Assembly (NCBI GenBank): GCA_002869265.1 | Contig: PKTH01000036.1 | Location: 168,525-232,524 of the forward strand | DNA length: 64,000 nucleotides | Direction of reading: 5' to 3' | DNA from: Candidatus Parcubacteria bacterium | GTDB lineage: Bacteria > Patescibacteriota > Patescibacteriia > Patescibacteriales > BM507 | Shown here: piece by piece, positions 9,429-54,199 of the stretch | How the letters are laid out: the number at the start of each line of letters is the position of its first letter | How positions within the stretch are numbered: the stretch's first letter is position 1 | Made by a program: the position numbers and the translations under genes | Notes under the pieces: model-generated | Told to the model about the DNA's origin: nothing | Seen by the model: the letters and a program-made list of their open reading frames with translations, nothing else | Database searches by the model: none

Positions 9429-9713
9429 TTATTTCTCCTCCTCTTGTGCTTTGACTTCTGCTCTAGCTGCTCGTTTTACTTTTTTACCTTTTCTGACTTT
9501 TGCTGTCTCTTTTTGAGCATCTACTTTTGCTTTAAACTTCTCAACTCTTCTTGCTGTATCAACTAGCTTTTGCTTGCCAGTGTAGAATGGGTGGCAATTT
9601 GAGCAAAGTTCCGTTTTTGTTTCATCAACAGTAGAACCAGTTTCAATAACATTTCCACAAGCACAAACAACCTTTGCTTTCGTGTTGTAGTTTGGGTGAA
9701 TATCTTTTTTCAT
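9429..9713 (-). CDS. rpmE: Ribosomal protein L31 (Zn-ribbon type) with a Lys-rich C-terminal extension
   Basis: MKKDIHPNY.., CACG...[12 protein letters not shown]. Confidence 0.95.
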
Positions 9714-9843
9714 ATATTAACTAAAATTATAATAAATATAAAAACAAGCGTTCTTCACTTGTCCGCTAGAATATTAACATAAATAAAATATTATTGCAAG
9801 CATTAAAGCCAGCTAAAGACTAAGTTAAGTTGATTTTAGGGTA

Positions 9844-9872
9844 TTGACATATTTTGAATAATGTACTAATAT
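9844..9872 (+). promoter_or_regulatory. Sigma-70-type promoter of the sRNA candidate
   Basis: TTGACA (9844-9849), 17-nt spacer, TAATAT (9867-9872). Confidence 0.6.
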
Positions 9873-9878
9873 GATAGT

Positions 9879-9980
9879 CGCGATATAGATCATTATAAAC
9901 AAACACTTTTTGGACAGGCCGGCTGCCTGTCCCCTTAGCCCTAATCGACCTAACCCTCCTGGTCATTAGGGCTTTTTTTT
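9879..9980 (+). ncRNA. Candidate ~100-nt small RNA with a GC-rich hairpin and an intrinsic terminator whose loop carries CCCUCCU
   Basis: Lies between a consensus promoter and a T8 tract. Hairpin 1 is GGACAGGC-cggct-GCCTGTCC (9912-9932). Hairpin 2 is GCCCTAATCGACC-taaccctcct-GGTCATTAGGGC followed by TTTTTTTT (9938-9980). There is no ORF. The downstream gene has its own promoter (TTGGCG-18-TATAAT). 5' end estimated from the promoter. Confidence 0.5.
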
Positions 9981-10058
9981 GAAAAAAAATAAGTCTTGGC
10001 GAATAATTAATTTTTGTGTTATAATTTTATAATAATAAATCCCTAATGTGTATAAAAC

Positions 10059-10925
10059 ATGAACAAGCAAGGAGTTAAAAAATTAGTAAGCTTAAAAGTC
10101 TTAGCACAAGATAACGGTTTAACAATTTCCTTTTTAACAGAGCAGATAAAATTAGAAAGGCTTAAATTTGAAAAAAAATCTAACACAGTCTATTCTTCTC
10201 AGGCCTGGCTTGATGAGTATAGAAGAGATTTTACTTTTTTTGGTTATATGGTAAATAAGAATTTTCCAGAAACCAATAAAAAAGAAGAAAAGAAAATTGA
10301 GACAGGGAAGATAATTCAAGAAGATAAAGAGACAATAGACATAGAAAAAGAATTCGTAAGTAAATGGAATAAAGAATTCAAAAAAATTAACGATGATTTT
10401 AATTCTTTAGTTACTTCAAGTCCAAAGTCAAAGAAAAGTAAAAATGACTTTGCCAAAGCTCACAATATCCATAGTGCTATTATCGCCTCAGCCATCCTGT
10501 TGTTACTTTCGTTTTATACTGTCTTTTTATTCCCAGAGGCAGCAGATTCTTTAACCAGGAAAATAGATTTCCTAGTCAGGGTTCCTTATGAAAAAATAAA
10601 TTCCCTTGTTTTAACTAAAGTTATAGATGAGGAAGCATCAGTTGCAAAGAAAAATACTCCAAGCAGAGAAGAATTATCAAATTATATTAAAGAAAAATCT
10701 TCTTCTATTTCATACCCATCAGGATCTGTAATTCCAGTAAATGAAAATGACATAGTGCTTGGAGAAGTTGCCGGGATAGATGAAGGTTTCGAGGATGAAG
10801 AATCAACAATCAATGCTAGGGGCTTAGCCTTAACTTTTTTTACAAGTTTAGCAGAAAAGCAAAAAAACGCTTCTTTGAAATTAAATGACAAGCTTAGCTC
10901 TTGGATAGATTCGATTAAAAAATAA
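10059..10925 (+). CDS. Hypothetical membrane protein
   Basis: 288-aa ORF with a central TM AIIASAILLLLSFYTVFLF. No family recognised. Confidence 0.55.
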   Translation: MNKQGVKKLVSLKVLAQDNGLTISFLTEQIKLERLKFEKKSNTVYSSQAWLDEYRRDFTFFGYMVNKNFPETNKKEEKKIETGKIIQEDKETIDIEKEFVSKWNKEFKKINDDFNSLVTSSPKSKKSKNDFAKAHNIHSAIIASAILLLLSFYTVFLFPEAADSLTRKIDFLVRVPYEKINSLVLTKVIDEEASVAKKNTPSREELSNYIKEKSSSISYPSGSVIPVNENDIVLGEVAGIDEGFEDEESTINARGLALTFFTSLAEKQKNASLKLNDKLSSWIDSIKK

Positions 10926-10976: not shown

Positions 10977-11138
10977 TTATTGGGCGTAGCTTTGGGATGC
11001 TAAATCAAGACTGGTGTTTAATAAAGAAAATATCTTTATTAAAATCTCATTTAGTATCTCTGCTACCTCTGGTAGGGCTACACGAATAACCAGTATGGCT
11101 AGTGCCAAGCTGAGAGCCCCAGAAAATGCTTTTACCAT
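10977..11138 (-). CDS. Unannotated 53-aa small membrane protein
   Basis: Manual translation of the minus strand gives MVKAFSGALSLALAILVIRVALPEVAEILNEILIKIFSLLNTSLDLASQSYAQ*. The start context AAATATATG matches this genome's usual non-SD context. The stop abuts the terminator. Below the 60-aa cutoff of the ORF track. Confidence 0.5.
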   Translation of the reverse strand: MVKAFSGALSLALAILVIRVALPEVAEILNEILIKIFSLLNTSLDLASQSYAQ

Positions 11139-11258
11139 ATATTTATCTTTGGGCATCCCGGCGACTAACCCGGTATTCTATGATCATTGTGATCATGCCC
11201 TTGAGAATGTGAGTTTAGACAAGCTCACATACTTAAGAGCTGTAACGAATTTAAAGGA
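11139..11258 (-). promoter_or_regulatory. Structured ~120-nt 5' leader (candidate cis-regulatory RNA) of the 53-aa ORF
   Basis: Three-way junction GGGCAT[GATCA-caa-TGATC]atagaata[CCGG-gttagtcg-CCGG]GATGCCC at 11151-11200. Hairpin ATGTGAG-n10-CTCACAT at 11207-11230. Locally GC-rich in an AT-rich genome. 5' end estimated from the promoter. Confidence 0.4.
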
Positions 11259-11364: not shown

Positions 11365-11622
11365 TTATAGGTGGATACTTGGAGATCGTGCAAGTTTTTC
11401 GTTTTTTTCCTTGATCGATCGTCTCTCGATTCCTGAAAGGATGTTGAAAAAAACAGCCAAGAGCGCAGACCCGTAAAAAGAGACTAGAATGTTTATGGGG
11501 CTTGCGAAGAAGTTTTCGTAAAGACTTACATTGTATTCTTCGTAAATTCCGTGTCCAATAGCGGTCCCCACAGCAATTAACCCTGCAAAGATAGAAATAA
11601 AAAAATAAATATCCTTTTGCAT
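11365..11622 (-). CDS. Small hypothetical membrane protein (2 TM)
   Basis: 85 aa with two hydrophobic helices. SD AAGGAGAG lies 5 nt upstream of ATG. Has its own terminator. Confidence 0.65.
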   Translation of the reverse strand: MQKDIYFFISIFAGLIAVGTAIGHGIYEEYNVSLYENFFASPINILVSFYGSALLAVFFNILSGIERRSIKEKNEKLARSPSIHL

Positions 11623-22491: not shown

Positions 22492-25400
22492 ATGATTAAG
22501 AAAAATAAAACCCTCATGTTTAAATATTGGCTAAAAAGAGCTAAGATATTTTTTAAGTTATATTATAGAAGAACACTCCTAGCAAGTAAGGACTTGAGGA
22601 GTGTTTTATTTTCCTCAACATCAGATAATTACCTTAGGGTAGAGTCTTGTCGAAAAGAACAAGATGGTCATATCAAATGCACCTTCACTGCTAACTTTAA
22701 ATCCTACAGAGCCCTAAAGAGATTTCAGAAGAGATTGAGGACGGCTACTCTTGGAACTGGCTCTATTGTGTCTATAGCGGTACTTTTTTTTATCACCGGT
22801 TGGTTTACATCTAATAATTTAGGTTTTCTAGATGCTGCTACTTATGACTATACTCAAGGCTCTTGGTCAGGGGGTTTATCAGGAGAAGTAGCTTGGCATC
22901 CTTTTGATAATTGGGACCATTATTCTTCTAGCTCGGATAATATAAAAATAGATACAAATGGATACTTTAGCTTGGCTACTACAACTAATTTAGAAATCCA
23001 TACTAATTACACAGACTTTAGCACTACGACTGCTATTTTTAGCCAAGCCACTACTACCGATCAATCCGGAGATGTTGGGATAAAACTAAATAAAGTATCA
23101 GGAACATACACCTTAGTGCAGACTGATGATGGAGCAACCACAACTTCTCCAACTTCGGATTTTAACGACGCTCACACAGCCAATAAGGGTGGTTGGGGCA
23201 ATAGAGGGGCAGGTGCTTTTCTAAATACTCTGCAAAATGGAGTGAGTGGAGAAGGGGCGAGTATTGGCCTAAGTTCTGTGGAGTTTGGTCAATTTAGTAG
23301 ATCATTGAGTCATGTATGTGCTATAAATAATTTGAGTGGCAAAATGTTTTGCTGGGGGGCTAACAGTGATGGGCAAATTGGTAATGGCACTTATTCTTTA
23401 AATGCAAAAGAATATATACCAGATGAGGTAGAAGGCGGGCATTTTTGGATTGATGTTGACACTAGTCACAAGGTTACTTGTGCTATTAGGGTGGATAACA
23501 AAATACTATGTTGGGGTAGTAATATAAGCCGCCAATTAGGCGATTCGTCAATACTAGGAAAGGCTCTTTTTCCGAACGAGGTAGTTGGAGGTAAGTTTTG
23601 GGAGAAGTTGTCTGTTGGCAATAATCATGTTTGTGCTATCGAAAAAGATACTAAAGAATTGTATTGTTGGGGGTTGAATGGTTATGGTCAATTAGGTTTA
23701 AATGACACTGATTATAGAGATAACCCCACCTCGCTAAGCACTGGAAAGAAATGGATTGATATTCAGAGCGGAGTTGATTTTACTTGTGCTATTGATGACT
23801 CTAATGTTGCTTATTGCTGGGGGAGAGGATATGCAGGAGAGCTTGGAGTAGGTGATGAAAATGATAGACTTGTCCCAACAATTGTTGAAGGTGGACACCT
23901 TTGGTCAAAAATAAGCAATGGTGCAGGTCATACTTGTGGAATATTGAGAGATGGTGGGAAAATGTACTGTTGGGGCAATGATAGTTATGCTCAGTTAGGG
24001 AATGGTGATACAGTAGGGAACTATTCTTCGCCTCTAAAAATAAGTGATGAAGAATGGACACATATTTCATCTGGGGGATTATCGAGTTGTGCGATTAAAA
24101 AAAGTGATAATCAGATTTATTGCTGGGGTTTAGGTTCCAGTTATGGGCTCGGGAATGGAGAGTTGGTCAACAAACAAGATCCAACTCCGGTTCTAAGTGG
24201 TGAAGAATGGAAAGACGTGTCTTTCGGTGACTATGGAGCATGTGGTTTACGGACAAATGATAATACTTTAATGTGCTGGGGTAATGGTTTCTCAGGTCAG
24301 AATGCAACGAATTCATTTGATGACAAGCCCATCCCCACGAGTATTCAAGGAGCATATTTACCTGTATATTGGGATTGGACAGATTTTGATGTCGGATATC
24401 AAGCTTCATGTGCCAGAAGGAATAACGATCAAACTTATTGTTGGGGCCTTAAAAACTATGGTGTTTTGGGTGATGGAGATACAAGTCCTGGTGTAGAATA
24501 CCTCCCAACTCTAACAAGCGGCACTTACTCGAAGATTTCAATTGGTCATGAACATGTATGCGCTATTGAAGAAGGGACAAATTTTTTATACTGCTGGGGA
24601 TCTTATGGATCGGGGAGGCTTGGTCTTGGTGATACCGGTAATGAAAATATTTTTGTGCCCACAAAAGTAACTGGCACCTGGAAAGATGTATCCCCTGGTG
24701 ATAACCATACTTGCGCTATTGATATGAACGATTTAGCTTATTGTTGGGGAAATGGGGCCGTTGGCGCACTGGGGCAAGGTATTGCCGACATAGAAGATAA
24801 ATTAGTTCCAACTCAGATTTTAGGAGGCATTGCCTGGAGCAAGATAGTAGCTGGTGATAATTTTAATTGTGGAATTGAAAAAACAACTGGTCATCTCTAT
24901 TGCTGGGGCTGGGGGCAGTACGGAAGACTCGGTATTGCTATTGGTGATTCAGACAATAGATATGAGCCAACCTTGATATCCAGTGACTTTTGGATTGACT
25001 TAAGCTCTATTGATGATCATGCTTGTGCAATAGACTCTAACAAGGATCTTTATTGCTGGGGATATGGACTTAGTTATAGGCTGGGTAATGGCTCTCCGAC
25101 TAGTAAGTATATTCCCACCGAGATCACTGATTCTGGTAAAAAATGGAAGAGTGTTTCTGCTGGAGCTCAGCACACATGTGCTATTGAAGATGTCACAGAG
25201 AAGGCTTATTGTTGGGGAGAAGGCAATAATGGACGACTGGGCAATAACGATATAACAGAGGCAGATCAGCCAACACCTGTTTTGGTTTATGGGAATAAGT
25301 CATGGGAAAAAATATCTTCTGGTGGTTATATGACTTGTGGTCTAGAGAAAAATACAAATAAAGTTTTCTGCTGGGGTAATGGAGCATATTTAAGTTTGAA

Positions 25401-28400
25401 TGAAACAGTGTCAGGAACAGACTATGTAGTCCCCACTGAAATTCACGGATCTTTTACTCCGGCCCCACCTCACGAGATAAAAACAAATATTATTTTTAAC
25501 AATAGTGGTTCCTATACTTCCTACATGGACTCAGAAGGTAACCCTGCTTGGAATGCTCTGCGTCTCTCGAAGGGTGATACTCTCGGGGTAACTAACACTA
25601 GTTTAAATATTTCAATTATTTCTGCTAGCTCCTCTGTTGACATCCCTGTTTTCCCAACATCAGGTAATTGTTATCAAGCAGGAATATCGGCTAATACTGA
25701 AACTACAAATTTTGACATATCAGGCTGTGCTGGATCTGAGCAATACTTATGGTACAAAGTAGATTTCACACCATCACCAGATTTTAGTGCCTCACCACTC
25801 CTTGAAGACATCACGGTTAGCTCTGACGTTACTCTTTTTGATAACTTCCTCCTAGGCACATATTCATCTCCAGTAATTAATACTAATTCTCCAACAGTTG
25901 ATGGGGGAATAAATATTTCATGGAATGCTACCACTTCTGGTGGTTCGGTTGAATTCATGGTAGCCTCGGCTGATTCAGATACAGGTCCTTGGACATTTAT
26001 GGATAAAACCGGCGCTAGCCCCGCTGATTGCTCTGGGGGAGGGTGCTATACCCTTAATTCAGGCGATGTTTTGAGTGCTCATCACAATGGTAAACAATAT
26101 TTCCGCTACAAGGCATTTCTCGAAGCTCCAGATGGCTCTTCTAGCCCAGTACTCAATGATGTCACTCTAAGTTATGATAGCTATCCAACAGATGATCAAT
26201 ATCTAATATCATCTGTATTTAACACTCAAGATGCCGCTAATCTAATTGGTGAAGTTGGTCTCAAGTGGAATTCTTTTCCTGATAATACAGACATTAGAAT
26301 GCAAGTGAGGACTAGTCCAGATAATAATACTTGGTCTCCCTGGTGTGGAGAGACTAATACTTGTGATGGCTCTGATTACTATACTTTCTCCTCTGCCTCT
26401 CCTGGAGAATATATTTATGATGTCATAGATGGCCACCCCATTCAAAATGATCTAGATGATCAATTTTTCCAATACAAGATCACCCTAAATTCAGATGGAC
26501 AATATACTCCTGTAGTAACTGAAGCTGATGTCACTTACGTTATCAACGCTCCACCAATATTTGAGAGTGATTATCCCAACGCAGGAGATGATGGTGTAGG
26601 AGCCTCACAGGTCTTTAAAGTAGTTGTTATTGACTATGCCATCCAGGACCCTGATACTGTTACCGCCACTATCACTCCCTCATACCACTACTCTCTAGAC
26701 TCTGGTAATACTTGGAGTGAAGTAATCGAAGATGGTTTCACCATCACTGCTCTTGGGGACCAGGACGTTACTAACCAATCTTCTGAGCCATATACTTTTG
26801 AATACTACTCATATGACTGGGAAGCAGCAGCTGAGATCGGTTTTGACGCCTCAACCACTGAGGCCATTATTAAAATTGTTGCCAATGACGGGGATGCGGC
26901 TAATGCAATTTCTGAGGCTACCAGCACAACATTTACTCTCAATACCAGCGCTCTCTCTAATGCTACCGCTACTCAAACACCAGAAGATACAGTTAGAAGA
27001 GGCTATGTTTTAGTTAACTATGACTACGATATCGCTCCAAGGATGAGCGCTTCAACTACAGTTGAGCTATTCTACTACCAGAACGGTTTATACGTTCCAG
27101 CTAATACTGTCCAGGCTGATGCTGGTCTAGGAGTAACTAGTGGAGCTGGAAAAGAGATAGAATGGATTGCTCGTGATGATTGGGGAGGAGTAGCTACTAC
27201 TACCAATGTCAAAATTAAAATCACATATTCAGGCGTAGAAATCCATAGTGAGGAAATAATTTCTAGTGATTTTGAACTAGATACAAAGGCTCCAGATTTC
27301 ACATTTTTTGATACAGTAAATGAGGAATACTACCCAACATATATTACCGCCAGTACCAGTCCAGGTACTGTGCACTTCTCCCCAGTAGATGATAATGCTA
27401 TTCACTATAAACTAAGTGAAGATGATGATTTTTCGAACGAAAGCTGGGAAGATTTAGTTATCCTAACTACTTATTCGCTCACTAACCCAGATGAGATCTA
27501 CACTATATTTAGAGATGAGTTTGATAACATTAGCGCTACCACGACTTCTATCACTCCAGAGCAAACAATCTACGCCATGATCCAAGATACCTCAAATCTA
27601 TTACCTGAGAATGATCTAGAAAAAGAATATCGACTGTTTCTGGCTTGGCGAGAAGTGGCTGAGCCGGCTAATGGTTTTCGCGAATACCGCGTATATTACA
27701 GAGACAATGACTCTGGGCCATTTATTTTTCTGGATAATGTAATCAGGAAGAGTGATAATTATTATGGAGACAATAGTTTAAGCCTGGACCAACAAAGATA
27801 TTATCGGGTAAGCACTGTTGATAACAAAGGAAATGAATCTTATCTCTCAGAAATATTAGTTGGACGAGCTAACGGTATACTAGACGAAGGCGAAGGAGGA
27901 ACTCCAGCTAGAGGAGAAGATGCCGTACCACCAGAGATATCAGCTGTCGCTACTTCATCACTATATACCACTCAAGTGACTATCACCTGGGATACTAATG
28001 AAATCTCTAACTCTATTGTAGAGTATGGCACCTCACCAGGGGATTTCTCCCTAGCCACCAAAACAATTGCTACTATGCGAGATGATAATGACAATCTCGG
28101 TGAACATGTTGTGATACTCTCAGGTCTAGAACCCAACACTGACTACTATTTTCAAGTTAAGTCCAGAGACGCTCTGGCTAACACTGGCTTTGCAAAGAAC
28201 GGGGGACTAGGTTATCATTTCAGAACCCCCACAGGACCTACCATTGAAATATCTCCAAGCGTAATGACCGGTACTCTAAAGAACTCAACAGTTACTATTA
28301 TCTGGAATACTGATATTAATTCAGACTCTTCGGTATATTATTCTACTTCACCTACCTTCACTACTTTTGATACATTCTCTGTTGATAATGATACTCAGAG

Positions 28401-31400
28401 CCATAGGGCTGACCTCACAGGACTATCTCCAGATACTAGGTACTATTACTACGTCACCTCAGATAACGCTATTGATAACAATGAAGAGGAATACTATGAT
28501 TTCAAAACTACTTTTGATACTGATCCCCCCAGAATAATAGTCGACTTCCCAGCAGATATTACAGATATTACAGATAATTCAGCTCTCATTTCTTGGAAAA
28601 CCGGTGAGTTGGCCAGTTCTAGTATTCATTACGGCATTGTTGATACCACGGAAGATAGTCAGTTTAATGATAATCTAAACACTGATCACAGCTTTAGACT
28701 GGAAGGTCTTCTACCAGGAGAGACTTATCAATTTAGAATTGAGAACACAGATGAAAATGTTAACAACAATAATAATAGTCTAACTACCTACAGTTTTATC
28801 ACGAAGGTGACTAATGATGAGGATGCTCCGGTAATCATCCCTCCAATTAACATTCCTTCAATAGATTATTCTTCAGCCACTATTACTTGGGATGTTGAAG
28901 GTGGGGAAACAGAAAAGACTTCTGCTTTAGTTGATTTTGGCCTAGATAATACTTTTGGAACAAGTCAAGGTAATTCAATTCCTAGGCTAGGAGGCACCAA
29001 GGTGGTTACGCTCTCAGGCCTAGCAGCCAGCACAACATATTTTTTCCAGGTAAAATCCTTCGATGAATCTGGGAACTATGATTATGACAATAATGGGGGA
29101 GAGGGATATACTTTTAAAACAGAGGACGCACCAGACACCGAAGATGTTACTCCACCAATACTGAATTGGACCGGGGAGGCTAACAAGACTGATTCTAGTA
29201 TTACTATATCCTGGACGACCCTAGGGGAACCCGCTGACTCAGTGGTTGCTTTTGAGCTTGCCGATGGGAATGGTTCTTATTCACAAGAACAAGGAATTGC
29301 CGGTTTAAGAGAGGAGCACACAGTAACTCTCGTCGGTCTAAACCCTTCCACTGATTATCACTATATAATTAAATCTCGTAATGCAGCTGGTATTGTGGGG
29401 ACAAATAATTATCTTGGAAATGGTTATCCCTTTACCACTGATGCTGGGGCTGACAAGACCCCCCCAAAGATTACAGTAAATGTCTCAACAAGCACTTTGG
29501 CTGACACCGATACTAGTATTAGAATAGAATGGCAAACAGATGAAGAGTCATCTTCTTTAGTGGACTATGGTACCAGCGAAGGTTCTTTTGTCTATACCCA
29601 GGGAGACCCTCGTCCTGACTTAACTTCTCATCGAGTTGATTTAGTTAACTTAGAACCAGGCACTGACTACTATTTCAGAGTGAGGTCTCTTGATTCTTCT
29701 AATAATCAATTCAAGGATGATAATGGAGATTTGGGTTATCACTTTAAAACCACAATTGACGATGTTGCCCCAATTATCACCTTCACTCCTGCTTCTGACA
29801 TCACAGACAAAACAGCCAACTCCACGAGAATTTCCTGGGTTACCAATGAACCAGTAATTTCAAGTATTGAATATGGCGAGACTCAGAGTTTTGGCCTCTT
29901 AAGCGATAACGCTAACTACAACCAAGATCACTCCATTGTCATAGATGGCCTAAACCCTAACACAGAATACTTTTTTAAACTAATTAGCATAGATATCCTT
30001 GGCAATGTTGCTTCGAGCTCTCAACAACTTGGCATTCCATTTGCATTTACTACAGAACTAAGTGCTGATACTACTCCTCCCAACATTACTCAGGTTTCGC
30101 TTGTTGCATCACCAGGACCAACCAGTGCTCAGATTCATTGGTTTACCAATGAGCCTTTTCCTGACCTCTCCTCATCTCTAGTGGACTTTGCAGCTTCAAG
30201 CACACTCACTTCTCTAAATACAATCACTCAAGGATCGTCAATGGCCTTTACGGCAGATCATTATGTTACATTGACTGGTCTTATGCCAGACACCACCTAT
30301 AGTTATCAGGTAAAATCATTTGATGAATCTGGCAATCAATCAACTAACAGTAATAATGGTGCCTACTACACCTTCACTACAGATTCAGGCTCTGACCCAA
30401 CTGACACTACCCCTCCGGTTATTACTAACGCTACCACTACGAATATTACTGCAAATACAGCTACAATTACCTGGGATACAGATGACCCATCTGATTCAGT
30501 GGTGGGCTATTCGCTGAATACTAGCTATTCTAGAGAAATTGGCAGTCCAGTAGCTTCCACTTCCCACTCAATCACTCTGAGTGGTCTAAGTCCTGAAACT
30601 ACATACAATTTCCAGCTTAAGTCTAGGGATGAGAATGGTAATCTGGCAACCAGTTCAGGGCATGTTCTTGTTACCACTTCTGGTACAGACAATAGTCCAC
30701 CAACTATTTCAAGCATAGCTCATGATAATATTACCCAGAGTACAGCTAGGATTAGGTGGAATACTGACGAAGAAAAGGCCTCTTCTTTAGTTGACTTTGG
30801 TCTCTCTTCTGGAAATTTCTCTCAGTCTCAAGGAAACCCTACTGCTGATTCAACTAGTCACGAAGTTATTCTCACTGGACTTGAGTTAGGAGAAACATAT
30901 TATTATCGAGTACGTTCATTTGATGCTGCTGGTAATCAAATGACCAGCACTGTGAATGATGCTGGTCAAAGACTTGTGTTTACAAGCATAGATGACAACA
31001 CTCCACCTAGCATCACTAATGTGGAAGAAGGGTTAATTGGAGATACCTACGCAGTAATTAACTGGGATACAAACGAACCAGCTGATTCCAAGATAGACTA
31101 CGGAGAGGAATCTAACAACCTGGATAAATCTTTAACATATGTTGGTTTAACAGAAGATCATTCAGTTACCATCACTGGGCTAGAGCCTGATACTACATAC
31201 TACTACAAAGCAATCTCAAGTGATGATAATACCAACACTGGCTCATCGACAATTAGGAGTTTTGTCACCAAAGAAAACTTAATAGAAGAGTCGGAGGTAG
31301 AGGAAAGAGAAGAGGCGGCTAGAGTGGGGGTAGAAGAAGAAAGTCAGGGCGGCGGCGGAGTTATCATCATAGATAAAACAGATAAAACACCACCTACCAT

Positions 31401-33072
31401 CTCTAGTGTTCGAGTAGCGGAGTTAGGGGAATCACATGCCAGAATAACCTGGACTACAGATGAAGTGGCTAATTCGACTATAGCCTATGGTTTTGGAACC
31501 TCCTATACAAAGGCTGATACAGATGTTGCTTCATTATCCAACAACACCACCTCTCACTCAGTAACGATTAAGCATCTCATACCCCTCACCGCCTACCATT
31601 TCTCGGCCGTCTCTATTGATGTTAATGGTAATGTTGCTAACTCTCCTGACTATACATTCACCACTAGAGAAGAGGGGGATACCGAAGAGAATATCACGCC
31701 AGAAAAAGCCGAAGAGGTAGAAGAATCACTAGAAAAGATCCAAGAACTAGCGGCTGACCTCCTAACCACAGGAGCAGCTGACGAGACTGATATCAAAGAC
31801 GCTATTGCTAAGATGACTGATCCACCAATGATTACCGGAGATGGTCCAGAAGTCCACGAAATCACCTCTAAAGGTGCTCTTGTAGTCTGGGCTACTGACA
31901 GAAGAGCTAATTCTGTAGTCTCATACTTCAAAACAGAAGAAGGAATAGAGAATGCTAGGCAAGTTGGTAATTTTGAAGAATTAGTCACAGACCACCAGGT
32001 ACGTATTACTGGACTTGAAGCTGGTACCAGCTATACATTCATTGGTAAATCAATAGATACTCTAGGTAATGTTGGAGCCTCAGACCCTATCAACTTCACT
32101 ACAGAAATCATCCCATATATCTCTAAAGTATCAATCAAGAATATCAAACACGACTCAGTAGAGATAGACTGGCATTCTAACACTCAAACTACCTCACTAC
32201 TCGAATACGGTATAGATGAGAACTATGGTAATGATATTATTGTTGATACTGTGGAGCATACCTTGGGACATGAAGCTAGGCTAAGTGATTTAAGCCCAGG
32301 AACCACTTACCACTTTAGGGTAAAGGGCTATACTTCTAGAGGGGAAATTATTTATTCAGACGACTACACCTTCACCACTCTTTCTAGTCCAGATGTCCTT
32401 GGCTACTCTATTGATAGTATTACTGACAAAACAGCTACTATCTCTTGGTCAACAAGCGAGAGAACAAGTTCTGAGATAGAATACGTCAATACAGAGACCT
32501 CTGTCTCAAAGAAAGTCTCTAACTCTGAATTAATAAAACAACATATTATCAAACTAAGAGAATTATCTCCGGGAATTAGCTATGACTTCATTATCCGTGG
32601 TCTAGATAAATTTGGACAAGAAACAGAGTCAGAAACATTCTCTTTTACTACTTTGGTTGATACTCAAGCACCAATCATTGAATTCGTGAAGACTGAGATG
32701 TCTTTAATAACTAAAGGACAGGATGACAGGGTCCAGGCTGTAATTACCTGGAACACAGAAGAAAAGTCCACCTCAGAGATAATCTATACAGAAGGAGTCC
32801 AGAGTGCAATCTCAGAAGAAGAGATGGGAACTGATGCTAATATTAAGTTAGTAAAGACAGAGGGGGAGTTAACCAGTAAACATGTTATTGTTGTCACTGA
32901 CTTTAGAGTCGGCTCTGTTTACACTCTTCGAGCTAAGTCAATTGATGAGGCTGGGAATGTTTCCTATTCAAAGAACTATACTGTATTAACACCTCAAAAA
33001 GAGGAATCAGTTTTAGAGATAATTCTAAAAACCTTCGAAGACACATTTGGTTGGCTAGGCTTAGGTGTTTAG
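22492..33072 (+). CDS. Giant (3526 aa) membrane-anchored surface protein: basic N-terminus, TM, 14 RCC1 repeats, three ~120-aa modules, ~17 FN3-like modules
   Basis: Single uninterrupted 10.6-kb ORF. TM ATLGTGSIVSIAVLFFITGWF at about residues 85-105. Repeated CWGxNxxGQLG. Repeated W.T.E...S.V.YG...H.V.L.GL.P.T.YY..V.S.D..GN. Confidence 0.9.
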   Translation: MIKKNKTLMFKYWLKRAKIFFKLYYRRTLLASKDLRSVLFSSTSDNYLRVESCRKEQDGHIKCTFTANFKSYRALKRFQKRLRTATLGTGSIVSIAVLFFITGWFTSNNLGFLDAATYDYTQGSWSGGLSGEVAWHPFDNWDHYSSSSDNIKIDTNGYFSLATTTNLEIHTNYTDFSTTTAIFSQATTTDQSGDVGIKLNKVSGTYTLVQTDDGATTTSPTSDFNDAHTANKGGWGNRGAGAFLNTLQNGVSGEGASIGLSSVEFGQFSRSLSHVCAINNLSGKMFCWGANSDGQIGNGTYSLNAKEYIPDEVEGGHFWIDVDTSHKVTCAIRVDNKILCWGSNISRQLGDSSILGKALFPNEVVGGKFWEKLSVGNNHVCAIEKDTKELYCWGLNGYGQLGLNDTDYRDNPTSLSTGKKWIDIQSGVDFTCAIDDSNVAYCWGRGYAGELGVGDENDRLVPTIVEGGHLWSKISNGAGHTCGILRDGGKMYCWGNDSYAQLGNGDTVGNYSSPLKISDEEWTHISSGGLSSCAIKKSDNQIYCWGLGSSYGLGNGELVNKQDPTPVLSGEEWKDVSFGDYGACGLRTNDNTLMCWGNGFSGQNATNSFDDKPIPTSIQGAYLPVYWDWTDFDVGYQASCARRNNDQTYCWGLKNYGVLGDGDTSPGVEYLPTLTSGTYSKISIGHEHVCAIEEGTNFLYCWGSYGSGRLGLGDTGNENIFVPTKVTGTWKDVSPGDNHTCAIDMNDLAYCWGNGAVGALGQGIADIEDKLVPTQILGGIAWSKIVAGDNFNCGIEKTTGHLYCWGWGQYGRLGIAIGDSDNRYEPTLISSDFWIDLSSIDDHACAIDSNKDLYCWGYGLSYRLGNGSPTSKYIPTEITDSGKKWKSVSAGAQHTCAIEDVTEKAYCWGEGNNGRLGNNDITEADQPTPVLVYGNKSWEKISSGGYMTCGLEKNTNKVFCWGNGAYLSLNETVSGTDYVVPTEIHGSFTPAPPHEIKTNIIFNNSGSYTSYMDSEGNPAWNALRLSKGDTLGVTNTSLNISIISASSSVDIPVFPTSGNCYQAGISANTETTNFDISGCAGSEQYLWYKVDFTPSPDFSASPLLEDITVSSDVTLFDNFLLGTYSSPVINTNSPTVDGGINISWNATTSGGSVEFMVASADSDTGPWTFMDKTGASPADCSGGGCYTLNSGDVLSAHHNGKQYFRYKAFLEAPDGSSSPVLNDVTLSYDSYPTDDQYLISSVFNTQDAANLIGEVGLKWNSFPDNTDIRMQVRTSPDNNTWSPWCGETNTCDGSDYYTFSSASPGEYIYDVIDGHPIQNDLDDQFFQYKITLNSDGQYTPVVTEADVTYVINAPPIFESDYPNAGDDGVGASQVFKVVVIDYAIQDPDTVTATITPSYHYSLDSGNTWSEVIEDGFTITALGDQDVTNQSSEPYTFEYYSYDWEAAAEIGFDASTTEAIIKIVANDGDAANAISEATSTTFTLNTSALSNATATQTPEDTVRRGYVLVNYDYDIAPRMSASTTVELFYYQNGLYVPANTVQADAGLGVTSGAGKEIEWIARDDWGGVATTTNVKIKITYSGVEIHSEEIISSDFELDTKAPDFTFFDTVNEEYYPTYITASTSPGTVHFSPVDDNAIHYKLSEDDDFSNESWEDLVILTTYSLTNPDEIYTIFRDEFDNISATTTSITPEQTIYAMIQDTSNLLPENDLEKEYRLFLAWREVAEPANGFREYRVYYRDNDSGPFIFLDNVIRKSDNYYGDNSLSLDQQRYYRVSTVDNKGNESYLSEILVGRANGILDEGEGGTPARGEDAVPPEISAVATSSLYTTQVTITWDTNEISNSIVEYGTSPGDFSLATKTIATMRDDNDNLGEHVVILSGLEPNTDYYFQVKSRDALANTGFAKNGGLGYHFRTPTGPTIEISPSVMTGTLKNSTVTIIWNTDINSDSSVYYSTSPTFTTFDTFSVDNDTQSHRADLTGLSPDTRYYYYVTSDNAIDNNEEEYYDFKTTFDTDPPRIIVDFPADITDITDNSALISWKTGELASSSIHYGIVDTTEDSQFNDNLNTDHSFRLEGLLPGETYQFRIENTDENVNNNNNSLTTYSFITKVTNDEDAPVIIPPINIPSIDYSSATITWDVEGGETEKTSALVDFGLDNTFGTSQGNSIPRLGGTKVVTLSGLAASTTYFFQVKSFDESGNYDYDNNGGEGYTFKTEDAPDTEDVTPPILNWTGEANKTDSSITISWTTLGEPADSVVAFELADGNGSYSQEQGIAGLREEHTVTLVGLNPSTDYHYIIKSRNAAGIVGTNNYLGNGYPFTTDAGADKTPPKITVNVSTSTLADTDTSIRIEWQTDEESSSLVDYGTSEGSFVYTQGDPRPDLTSHRVDLVNLEPGTDYYFRVRSLDSSNNQFKDDNGDLGYHFKTTIDDVAPIITFTPASDITDKTANSTRISWVTNEPVISSIEYGETQSFGLLSDNANYNQDHSIVIDGLNPNTEYFFKLISIDILGNVASSSQQLGIPFAFTTELSADTTPPNITQVSLVASPGPTSAQIHWFTNEPFPDLSSSLVDFAASSTLTSLNTITQGSSMAFTADHYVTLTGLMPDTTYSYQVKSFDESGNQSTNSNNGAYYTFTTDSGSDPTDTTPPVITNATTTNITANTATITWDTDDPSDSVVGYSLNTSYSREIGSPVASTSHSITLSGLSPETTYNFQLKSRDENGNLATSSGHVLVTTSGTDNSPPTISSIAHDNITQSTARIRWNTDEEKASSLVDFGLSSGNFSQSQGNPTADSTSHEVILTGLELGETYYYRVRSFDAAGNQMTSTVNDAGQRLVFTSIDDNTPPSITNVEEGLIGDTYAVINWDTNEPADSKIDYGEESNNLDKSLTYVGLTEDHSVTITGLEPDTTYYYKAISSDDNTNTGSSTIRSFVTKENLIEESEVEEREEAARVGVEEESQGGGGVIIIDKTDKTPPTISSVRVAELGESHARITWTTDEVANSTIAYGFGTSYTKADTDVASLSNNTTSHSVTIKHLIPLTAYHFSAVSIDVNGNVANSPDYTFTTREEGDTEENITPEKAEEVEESLEKIQELAADLLTTGAADETDIKDAIAKMTDPPMITGDGPEVHEITSKGALVVWATDRRANSVVSYFKTEEGIENARQVGNFEELVTDHQVRITGLEAGTSYTFIGKSIDTLGNVGASDPINFTTEIIPYISKVSIKNIKHDSVEIDWHSNTQTTSLLEYGIDENYGNDIIVDTVEHTLGHEARLSDLSPGTTYHFRVKGYTSRGEIIYSDDYTFTTLSSPDVLGYSIDSITDKTATISWSTSERTSSEIEYVNTETSVSKKVSNSELIKQHIIKLRELSPGISYDFIIRGLDKFGQETESETFSFTTLVDTQAPIIEFVKTEMSLITKGQDDRVQAVITWNTEEKSTSEIIYTEGVQSAISEEEMGTDANIKLVKTEGELTSKHVIVVTDFRVGSVYTLRAKSIDEAGNVSYSKNYTVLTPQKEESVLEIILKTFEDTFGWLGLGV
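23300..25400 (+). repeat. 14 tandem RCC1/ATS1-type beta-propeller blades (protein-level repeat, period ~153-165 nt)
   Basis: 14 C-W-G codon triplets (TGY TGG GGN) at about 23350, 23509, 23661, 23813, 23965, 24118, 24271, 24436, 24590, 24741, 24898, 25051, 25209 and 25366. Confidence 0.85.
27925..32995 (+). repeat. Array of 16 divergent FN3-like modules (~95-105 aa each), plus one more upstream at ~27620-27870
   Basis: Each module contains (I/V)xW.T(D/N)E..(S/D)S.V.YG and H.V.L.GL.P.T.Y.(Y/F).V.S.D..GN. Two acidic linkers lie at ~31260-31380 and ~31660-31840. Confidence 0.8.
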
Positions 33073-37654: not shown

Positions 37655-38089
37655 CTACATGAGTCTTTTCACGACAGTTGTTAGGTGAATGATTTCTTCA
37701 AGCATAAGGAATTCTTCATTGTTAAGCCTTGCGTGTAGATTAGTGATAAGTATTAAACGCTTATTAGTAGCGCAGGTTGGGCATTCTTCCTCGGGCATGG
37801 AGTTAGGGGCGGTATAGATGTTTTCTTTGTGAATGTTGCAGCCATTAAGAGGTCTAGTGCAATCCTGACAGACTGATTCTTTCCCAGACAGCTGGTCTAC
37901 TTGGCTCCTGAGAAAAAGAATCTCACCTAAATGAATCTTTTTCTGAGAGTCAAAATCTCGTGTAAAAAATTGGATTGCATCTTTTAACATGATTTCGGCA
38001 CATTTGAGACAAGGGATTTCCGGCATTTTACCCAAAGGGTAGTAGAGGTTATCATTGTGCTCAGGACAAGCGTCTATCTTCCTTCTCAT
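37655..38089 (-). CDS. Hypothetical Cys-rich protein with a duplicated C-x2-H-x15-C-x2-C module, antisense inside the atp locus
   Basis: Start set at ATG 38089, 5 nt after AGGAGG (complement of 38095-38100). The ORF-track TTG 38140 is less likely. Repeats are CPEHNDNLYYPLGKMPEIPCLKC and CNIHKENIYTAPNSMPEEECPTC. Confidence 0.65.
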   Translation of the reverse strand: MRRKIDACPEHNDNLYYPLGKMPEIPCLKCAEIMLKDAIQFFTRDFDSQKKIHLGEILFLRSQVDQLSGKESVCQDCTRPLNGCNIHKENIYTAPNSMPEEECPTCATNKRLILITNLHARLNNEEFLMLEEIIHLTTVVKRLM

Positions 38090-54115: not shown

Positions 54116-54199
54116 TGCCCAGGGAGGGAATCGAACCCTCACTCTATTGCTAGAACGGGATTTTGAGTCCCGCGTGTCTACCAGTTTCACCACCTGGGC
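54116..54199 (-). tRNA. tRNA-Leu (anticodon CAA), class II with a long variable arm; CCA not encoded
   Basis: Reverse complement is GCCCAGG-UG-GUGAAACUGGUAGACAC-G-CGGGA-CUCAAAA-UCCCG-UUCUAGCAAUAGAGU-GAGGG-UUCGAUU-CCCUC-CCUGGGC-A. All four stems pair. Confidence 0.92.

Follow-up and report, generated by a model that had tools for sequence, protein, structure and literature searches.

The C-rich hairpin loops of the small RNA (sRNA) sX13 from Xanthomonas bind G-rich mRNA motifs without Hfq, RepG of Helicobacter pylori uses the C/U-rich loop of its terminator as the seed against a G-rich leader, and the C-rich regions of RsaE are several and its metabolic regulon is defined. In Listeria monocytogenes, LhrC uses a CUCCC sequence in its terminator loop to pair with the G-rich Shine-Dalgarno (SD) region of lapB and represses it, as shown by compensatory mutation, and RNAIII, RsaE, SprD and FsrA were named as using the same UCCC/CUCCC motif (PMC4132741). 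The atoC motif (RF01733) has a seed of eight delta-proteobacterial sequences, each starting with a -10-like UAUAAU or UAUACU, followed in order by an AUAGA block, UUGC, a 7-bp hairpin, CAUUAU and a terminator starting GCCC (Weinberg et al. 2010, PMC2864571). The atoC terminator reads GCCCUAGUCGAC..., with UUUCCCUCCU in a loop of ~9 nt and then a U-tail; the motif was tentatively classed as cis-regulatory, and the genes downstream of it are varied (Weinberg et al. 2010, PMC2864571). Literature searches on the function of atoC returned the original description only. The C-rich-loop design is already catalogued, both as atoC RF01733 and among the UCCC/C-rich-loop sRNAs. Base-pairing sRNAs are hardly described in the Candidate Phyla Radiation (CPR), and a full-text literature search for them in CPR/Parcubacteria found nothing on the topic.

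The window analysed here, which is the whole stretch of 64,000 nucleotides, comes from an AT-rich (~35 % GC) Parcubacteria/Patescibacteria MAG, and the GTDB representative closest to the host has an RF1 identity of only 63 %. No rRNA was found within the 64-kb window, one Rfam hit in it reaches the gathering score (an 84-nt tRNA whose variable arm is long; 54116-54199, minus strand), and a single ORF of 3526 aa occupies 22492-33072 in a region of raised GC (0.41 vs ~0.35). The sRNA lies in the following setting:

9429-9713, minus strand: rpmE, followed by prfA and prmC
9714-10058: spacer of 345 nt between rpmE and the 288-aa gene, holding the sRNA
10059-10925, plus strand: ORF of 288 aa, downstream of the sRNA

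Three promoters (those of rpmE, the sRNA and the 288-aa gene) are packed into the 345-nt spacer. The rpmE promoter and the start of the rpmE leader lie at 9742-9799 on the minus strand: the promoter is TTGCAA (9799-9794), a 17-nt spacer and TAATAT (9776-9771), and the leader carries a conserved hairpin, GGACAAGUGAAGAACGCUUGUUU, at its very start, then a U-rich tail (9764-9742). The ACAAGC-N5/6-ACTTGT core of this hairpin is kept in all relatives, and the hairpin could act on the rpmE-prfA-prmC operon as an attenuator or as a 5' stabiliser. Beyond the 288-aa gene, a small conserved ORF of ~52 aa (M-x-KAFSGALSLALAILVIRVALPEVA...) is located on the minus strand at 10977-11200; its start is probably the second ATG (11135). 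The GC-rich hairpin ahead of this ORF, CCGG(G)TTAGTC(N)CCGGG, is conserved and occurs as well in L066 and L067, two of the related loci introduced below.

An earlier note on this DNA had described a consensus promoter, an ORF-free transcript with two GC-rich hairpins ending in T8, and a CCCUCCU sequence in the 10-nt loop of the terminator. All of these were found in the window:

9844-9872, plus strand: sRNA promoter, 10 of 12 matches in a promoter scan, with -35 TTGACA (9844-9849), a 17-nt spacer and -10 TAATAT (9867-9872)
9879-9980, plus strand: predicted sRNA transcript of ~100 nt, from the lack of an ATG, the minimum free energy (MFE) fold and a covariance model (CM) score of 105 bits
9885-9894, plus strand: semi-conserved single-stranded 5' motif AUAGAUCAUU, from the alignment of orthologues
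9912-9932, plus strand: hairpin 1, from the fold and from double-sided changes across orthologues, with arms GGACAGGC (9912-9919) and GCCUGUCC (9925-9932) and loop CGGCU
9933-9937, plus strand: CU-rich linker CCUUA, pyrimidine-rich (CCYUU-AG) in most orthologues
9938-9972, plus strand: terminator hairpin, from the fold and the covariation of its bottom 8 pairs, with arms GCCCUAAUCGACC (9938-9950) and GGUCAUUAGGGC (9961-9972) and a 10-nt loop, UAACCCUCCU (9951-9960)
9954-9960, plus strand: CCCUCCU, an anti-SD-like motif inside the 10-nt terminator loop
9973-9980, plus strand: T8 tail of the intrinsic terminator, read from the sequence, with T6-T8 in all orthologues

The transcript would start ~7 nt past the -10 box and end within the T-run, and there is no ATG between ~9879 and 9980. 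Its MFE is -34.8 kcal/mol (z = -5.0), and 0 of 200 shuffled sequences were as stable. The 5' motif has the family consensus A-N-AGA/C-N-C-N-UU, the 3' arm of hairpin 1 together with the linker reads CCCCUUAG, and the CU-rich linker may serve as a second seed. The CCCUCC(U) of the loop contains CCUCC, the core of the anti-Shine-Dalgarno sequence of 16S rRNA. A scan of 10 kb gave 52 promoter-like matches vs 35 ± 6 expected, so a lone promoter match is weak evidence in this DNA and the window copy taken by itself is only suggestive.

Relatives were traced to contigs through RF1 homologues (74-82 % identical), and additional loci were obtained, one by a metagenome scan with the neighbour protein and one by a protein search with the same protein; the metagenome scan, which used an alignment of the 288-aa protein, gave two loci only, one of them usable. 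Ten further distinct copies of the element (L066, L067, L070, L071, L075, L076, L077, L079, L081 and L082) were obtained in this way, and all 11 copies occupy the spacer between rpmE and the 288-aa gene. The promoter layout in the ten orthologues is a -35 of T[TAG][GT]AC[AG], a 17-nt spacer and a -10 of TAnnnT, with a U-tailed GC-rich hairpin 76-115 nt further on; over all 11 copies, the promoter lies about 80-120 nt upstream of that hairpin. The transcript, ~100 nt in the window, is 76-115 nt in the relatives. Folded singly, each orthologue formed hairpin 1 and the terminator hairpin, except L071, which is without hairpin 1. The transcript is ATG-free in 6 of the 11 orthologues, and no conserved ORF was found on either strand of the 11, in agreement with the ORF-free transcript of the earlier note. 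A short plus-strand peptide was rejected for this lack of a shared ORF, and so was a reading of the minus strand, in which an SD-like AGGAGGG precedes a 48-aa ORF (9820-9966) that is absent from the orthologues.

Relatives with RF1 identities of 70 % or less (L072-L074) have another neighbour gene and lack the element, which is therefore a clade-restricted, single-copy, syntenic unit. An nhmmer search of 64 prfA loci from GTDB representatives, with the window RNA as query, matched the source contig only, and scanning viral contigs with the family pattern gave 0 hits.

The covariation search in relatives that the earlier note had asked for showed both hairpins to covary across 11 orthologous loci. 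Alignments of the RNAs made with MAFFT left the hairpins unaligned, and a structural alignment was made by hand, with N for gaps. In this alignment of 11 sequences and 16 pairs, all 161 of 161 cells are standard pairs and double-sided changes occur in 14 of the 16 pairs, values reached by 0 of 500 shuffles, but the alignment was fitted to the structure, hairpin 1 most of all, and its pair counts are inflated accordingly. When the 3' partners were slid as a control, pairing fell to 35-46 %. Hairpin 1 has double-sided changes in all 8 of its pairs with 100 % of cells paired, and in the bottom 8 pairs of the terminator 6 were changed on both sides and 88 of 88 cells were paired. The single-sequence folds support the structure independently of the hand alignment. 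As a blind check, a covariance model was built from eight copies with L070 and L081 left out; it recovered both held-out copies (42.7 bits and 40.6 bits, respectively), scored the window copy at 105 bits, and found nothing else credible over 674 kb that included the rest of the window and the 64 distant prfA loci. Secondary matches of the model at L077 3285-3380 and L004 3878-3960 were considered as paralogues and rejected as ordinary hairpins or terminators. The conservation of the complete unit in ten other genomes, with covarying hairpins, makes the element more than a product of chance. Its 11 copies, the covariation of its two helices and the conservation of its promoter give enough comparative support to seed a new RNA family.

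Covariation of a stem holds in any real terminator and is by itself no proof of a regulatory role at the RNA level. The promoter and terminator could have no such function and simply insulate the divergent rpmE and downstream promoters from one another, the C-rich loop being incidental; the packing of three promoters into 345 nt and the covariation of the terminator stems, expected whatever other function they have, are in keeping with this. An insulator, however, needs neither hairpin 1, nor the 5' motif, nor a particular loop sequence, and it is these, above all the loop, that are conserved among relatives at 74-82 % RF1 identity when the rest of the spacer is not. Pure insulation is considered highly improbable.

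The location of the element directly upstream of the same gene raises the question of a cis-acting 5' leader or attenuator, in which a signal would decide whether transcription ends at the terminator or continues into the 288-aa gene. The conserved tandem arrangement fits such a leader, and atoC was itself tentatively classed as cis-regulatory (Weinberg et al. 2010, PMC2864571). Against it stands a second and better conserved promoter between the terminator and the gene:

9996-10025, plus strand: promoter of the 288-aa gene, TTGGCG-18-TATAAT with a TG extension, from a promoter scan

In every relative the U-tail is followed by TTGGC-N15-GTGTTATAAT, or at least by an extended -10, TGTTATAAT, and then by a conserved 5' UTR. 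Since this promoter after the U-tail is conserved, the downstream gene can be said to have a promoter of its own, as the earlier note had proposed. No anti-terminator pairing and no upstream complement to the 5' arm of the terminator were seen by inspection, and a simple attenuator would give the conserved loop sequence no role. Of the 288-aa gene, L066 retains the promoter, the UTR and seven codons only, and the RNA is intact. An attenuating leader is accordingly held to be quite improbable, even if some read-through into the 288-aa gene may occur. The preference of the earlier note for a stand-alone RNA over a leader was thus borne out by the separate downstream promoter and by the retention of the RNA in L066 without the gene. 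With its own conserved promoter and terminator, this separate downstream promoter and the loss of the gene in L066, the element is very probably a genuine, conserved, stand-alone structured sRNA gene.

Two side observations were made on the downstream region. The 5' UTR of the 288-aa gene (10030-10061), TAATGTGTATAAAA(C/A)ATG, is conserved exactly in the relatives that keep AAGGAG at +11..+16, and within it an out-of-frame ATG (10046), 13 nt ahead of the start codon as annotated, begins a short uORF with overlap (MCIKHEQARS and a stop in the window). In L066, an unrelated gene of 103 aa with a strong SD (AAAGGAGTAGGCGATG) replaces the 288-aa gene on the reverse strand (L066:2250-2900).

The CCCUCC of the terminator loop is kept in 9 of the 11 copies, with loop lengths of 7-13 nt and variable flanks. 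The exceptions are the loops of L075, AUUAUCCUUCUU (CCUUCUU), and L077, AUAUCUUC (UCUUCU), whose changes are C-to-U only, so that G-U pairs still allow pairing to purine runs of the GGAGG type. Beneath this conserved loop, 6 of the 8 stem pairs of the terminator have changed on both sides. That the sequence of the loop is constrained and that of the stem is free is the main argument for seeing the loop as a recognition surface and not as the mere top of a terminator, and CCCUCC is under selection of its own.

What the loop would recognise could be a protein or an RNA. As a protein-binding or decoy RNA, it would use its resemblance to the 16S tail to titrate a KH-domain protein, a poly(C)-binding protein or some factor acting on the anti-SD tail, which would suit a conserved loop motif with no evident mRNA target; protein binding was suggested by Weinberg et al. 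for the Bacillaceae-1 motif, with its two terminal loops sharing RUCCU. Each RNA here, however, has a single strong copy of the motif, no candidate protein was identified, and the drift of two orthologues from C to U is easier to reconcile with pairing to purines than with a protein site. A decoy is regarded as very unlikely. The best-supported mechanism is that the anti-SD-like loop is a base-pairing seed against GGAG-type sites, an assignment that we infer and consider about equally balanced between right and wrong.

In silico, the sRNA is an independent unit that runs from its own sigma-70-type promoter to its own intrinsic terminator and forms two hairpins, with an unpaired C/U-rich CCCUCC(U) displayed in the apical loop of the second, the terminator. 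Under the base-pairing mechanism, this loop, possibly together with the CU-rich linker, would pair to purine-rich GGAG/GGAGG sequences at or just past start codons, and this pairing would block binding of the 30S subunit. Such pairing is proposed because the loop motif is selectively conserved and because LhrC, RsaE/RoxS, sX13 and RepG offer analogues. Candidate targets would be the few mRNAs with a real SD in this almost SD-free genome, such as that of gene 37655-38089, and the adjacent 288-aa membrane-protein gene, through the AAGGAG in its codons 4-6.

The estimate in the earlier note of about 14 SD-using genes in the window was approximately right: 4-mer SD cores at -20..-3 occur in 12 of 64 window genes, vs 4-10 of 64 in control windows, and are no more frequent than controls would allow. 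SD cores of at least 5 nt are found in ~7 of the 64, all at a spacing of 5-9 nt (e.g. 267, 11622, 38089, 49667, 50092, 59430 and 63757, five of the seven on the minority strand), and all other window genes have A/U-rich upstream regions. The seven genes with a strong SD encode a histidine kinase and six small proteins that match nothing in Pfam; of these six, one or more look membrane-embedded. Among the seven is the gene of an 85-aa membrane protein (11365-11622), two genes away, whose strong SD is kept at the same position in relatives. The spacing of strictly 5-9 nt suggests that the strong SDs are still read by the ribosome.

The pairing to SD regions that the earlier note had wished to see predicted did not stand out in the window: in a duplex scan, the 64 start regions as a class were no better than background 50-mers (64 kb, one genome). 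The best duplex joins CCUCCUGG with CCAGGAGG of gene 37655-38089 (8 bp, -15.3 kcal/mol). A pairing of the 5' motif to the leader of the small ORF (11170-11190) was rejected, since by eye it is not conserved in the upstream sequences.

It is possible that the sRNA selectively shuts off the SD-led minority. The fuller form of this idea, a class-specific switch in which an anti-SD acting in trans competes with the ribosome for the few SD-led mRNAs and lowers the class together, is thought quite unlikely to be correct. An extreme version would have the 16S rRNA of this clade lose its anti-SD, the 'SD' motifs then being sites for binding the sRNA and not the ribosome; about half of Parcubacteria 16S rRNAs are reported to be without a detectable anti-SD (PMC9297842). 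With SDs at about one gene in ten in the host, an anti-SD-bearing sRNA offers a clean natural system in which to ask what the residual SDs are for.

A site within the neighbouring gene is also a possible target of the loop:

10069-10074, plus strand: AAGGAG in codons 4-6 (+11..+16) of the 288-aa gene, possible local loop target

A dedicated local regulator would control the 288-aa gene by a kissing contact of its loop with this AAGGAG, which lies where pairing still blocks initiation in a gene that has no upstream SD of its own. Of the 10 loci whose downstream region can be seen, 9 have the sRNA and the 288-aa gene in synteny, and AAGGAG (GAGG in L076) is present at +11..+25 in all seven orthologues with a CCUCC loop. 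In L075 and L077, which have lost CCUCC, GGAG is also absent from the neighbour gene, and L077 carries AAGAAGA at this place, the complement of the UCUUCU in its loop. Several observations weaken this reading. The predicted pairing is of 5-6 bp only (-7.4 kcal/mol in the window; range -6.7 to -10) and the 288-aa gene is not among the best predicted targets of the window; AAGGAG arises naturally from the K-G-D/E codons, which are conserved; with L075 and L077 resembling sister lineages, one event may account for the co-variation of loop and site; the neighbour gene of L075, whose loop has changed, contains no cognate site at all; and L066 keeps the RNA without the 288-aa gene. The AAGGAG is thus a weak candidate for a local loop target, suggestive only, and a regulator dedicated to the 288-aa gene is judged unlikely.

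The neighbour protein belongs to a tiny family (9 clusters among 5.8 billion proteins), and the 288-aa protein has no Pfam match and no PDB profile match. Its AlphaFold model is poor (pLDDT 44.5) and shows an N-terminal beta-alpha-alpha-beta-beta pattern, a hint that the N-terminus may be a winged helix-turn-helix. If the winged helix is right, one may speculate that the 288-aa protein is the transcription factor of the RNA, which would explain the synteny.

When the sRNA was compared with Rfam at gathering score, no family was matched. The top match below threshold was the atoC motif, at 30.8 bits for the window, 32.3 bits for L079 and 29.8 bits for L076, far under its gathering cut-off of 50 bits; it was the only Rfam match for the relatives and always extended over the full length of the model, the other orthologues falling below the threshold of E = 1. 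The two share the same order of parts, namely a -10-like start, an A-rich 5' portion with AUAGA, UUGC, a hairpin, a linker and a U-tailed terminator, and by eye the AUAGA, UUGC and CAUUAU blocks of the atoC seed have similar counterparts in the element, AUAGA in its 5' motif. Both have two hairpins of which the second is a U-tailed intrinsic terminator, hairpin 1 being missing in one of the 11 copies here (L071). CCCUCCU occurs in the terminator loop of seven of the eight atoC seeds and CCCUCC in nine of the 11 copies of the element, and the window terminator arm GCCCUAAUCGAC agrees with the Geobacter atoC GCCCUAGUCGAC at 11 of 12 positions. In contrast, the atoC seeds are delta-proteobacterial and the element is from Parcubacteria (CPR), and atoC is annotated as cis-regulatory whereas the element is separate from the promoter of the downstream gene. 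With a sequence-only HMM of the atoC seeds, the window copy was found at 14.7 bits (E = 0.002) and every other orthologue stayed within the range of shuffled controls; because the window copy alone is found, the element is not filed as a member of atoC. The element would work like atoC, and common descent and convergence are both possible. Given a seed alignment that opens with a -10-like box and is built from the same parts, atoC itself is probably no leader but a short, terminated RNA that carries an anti-SD-like seed.

LhrC resembles the sRNA in its length of ~100 nt, its two hairpins, its CU-rich motifs in loops (including the terminator loop) and in a linker, and its low-GC host genome. 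It shows no sequence similarity to the element and differs in being multicopy with three redundant motifs, where the element is single-copy with one strong motif, and in having hosts that use SDs for most genes. RsaE/RoxS of Firmicutes, which form a different family, likewise target SD sequences with unpaired C-rich motifs, and the Rfam models of LhrC and RsaE were not listed against the element at E values of up to 10. The weak resemblance to sX13 (RF02232; 20.4 bits, cut-off 50) is set against its three hairpins with CCCC loops and its gamma-proteobacterial host, and RepG differs in that its target is a variable G-repeat and not an SD, the sequences being unrelated. The attributes of C-rich-loop sRNAs that were seen here in silico are a promoter and terminator of its own, a non-coding transcript and a conserved unpaired C-rich loop. 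As the Rfam models are unmatched, the resemblance to LhrC, RsaE and sX13 is, by analogy, one of manner of working and not of family membership, and the sRNA is notable mainly for the phylum of its host and for the light that it sheds on the orphan atoC motif.
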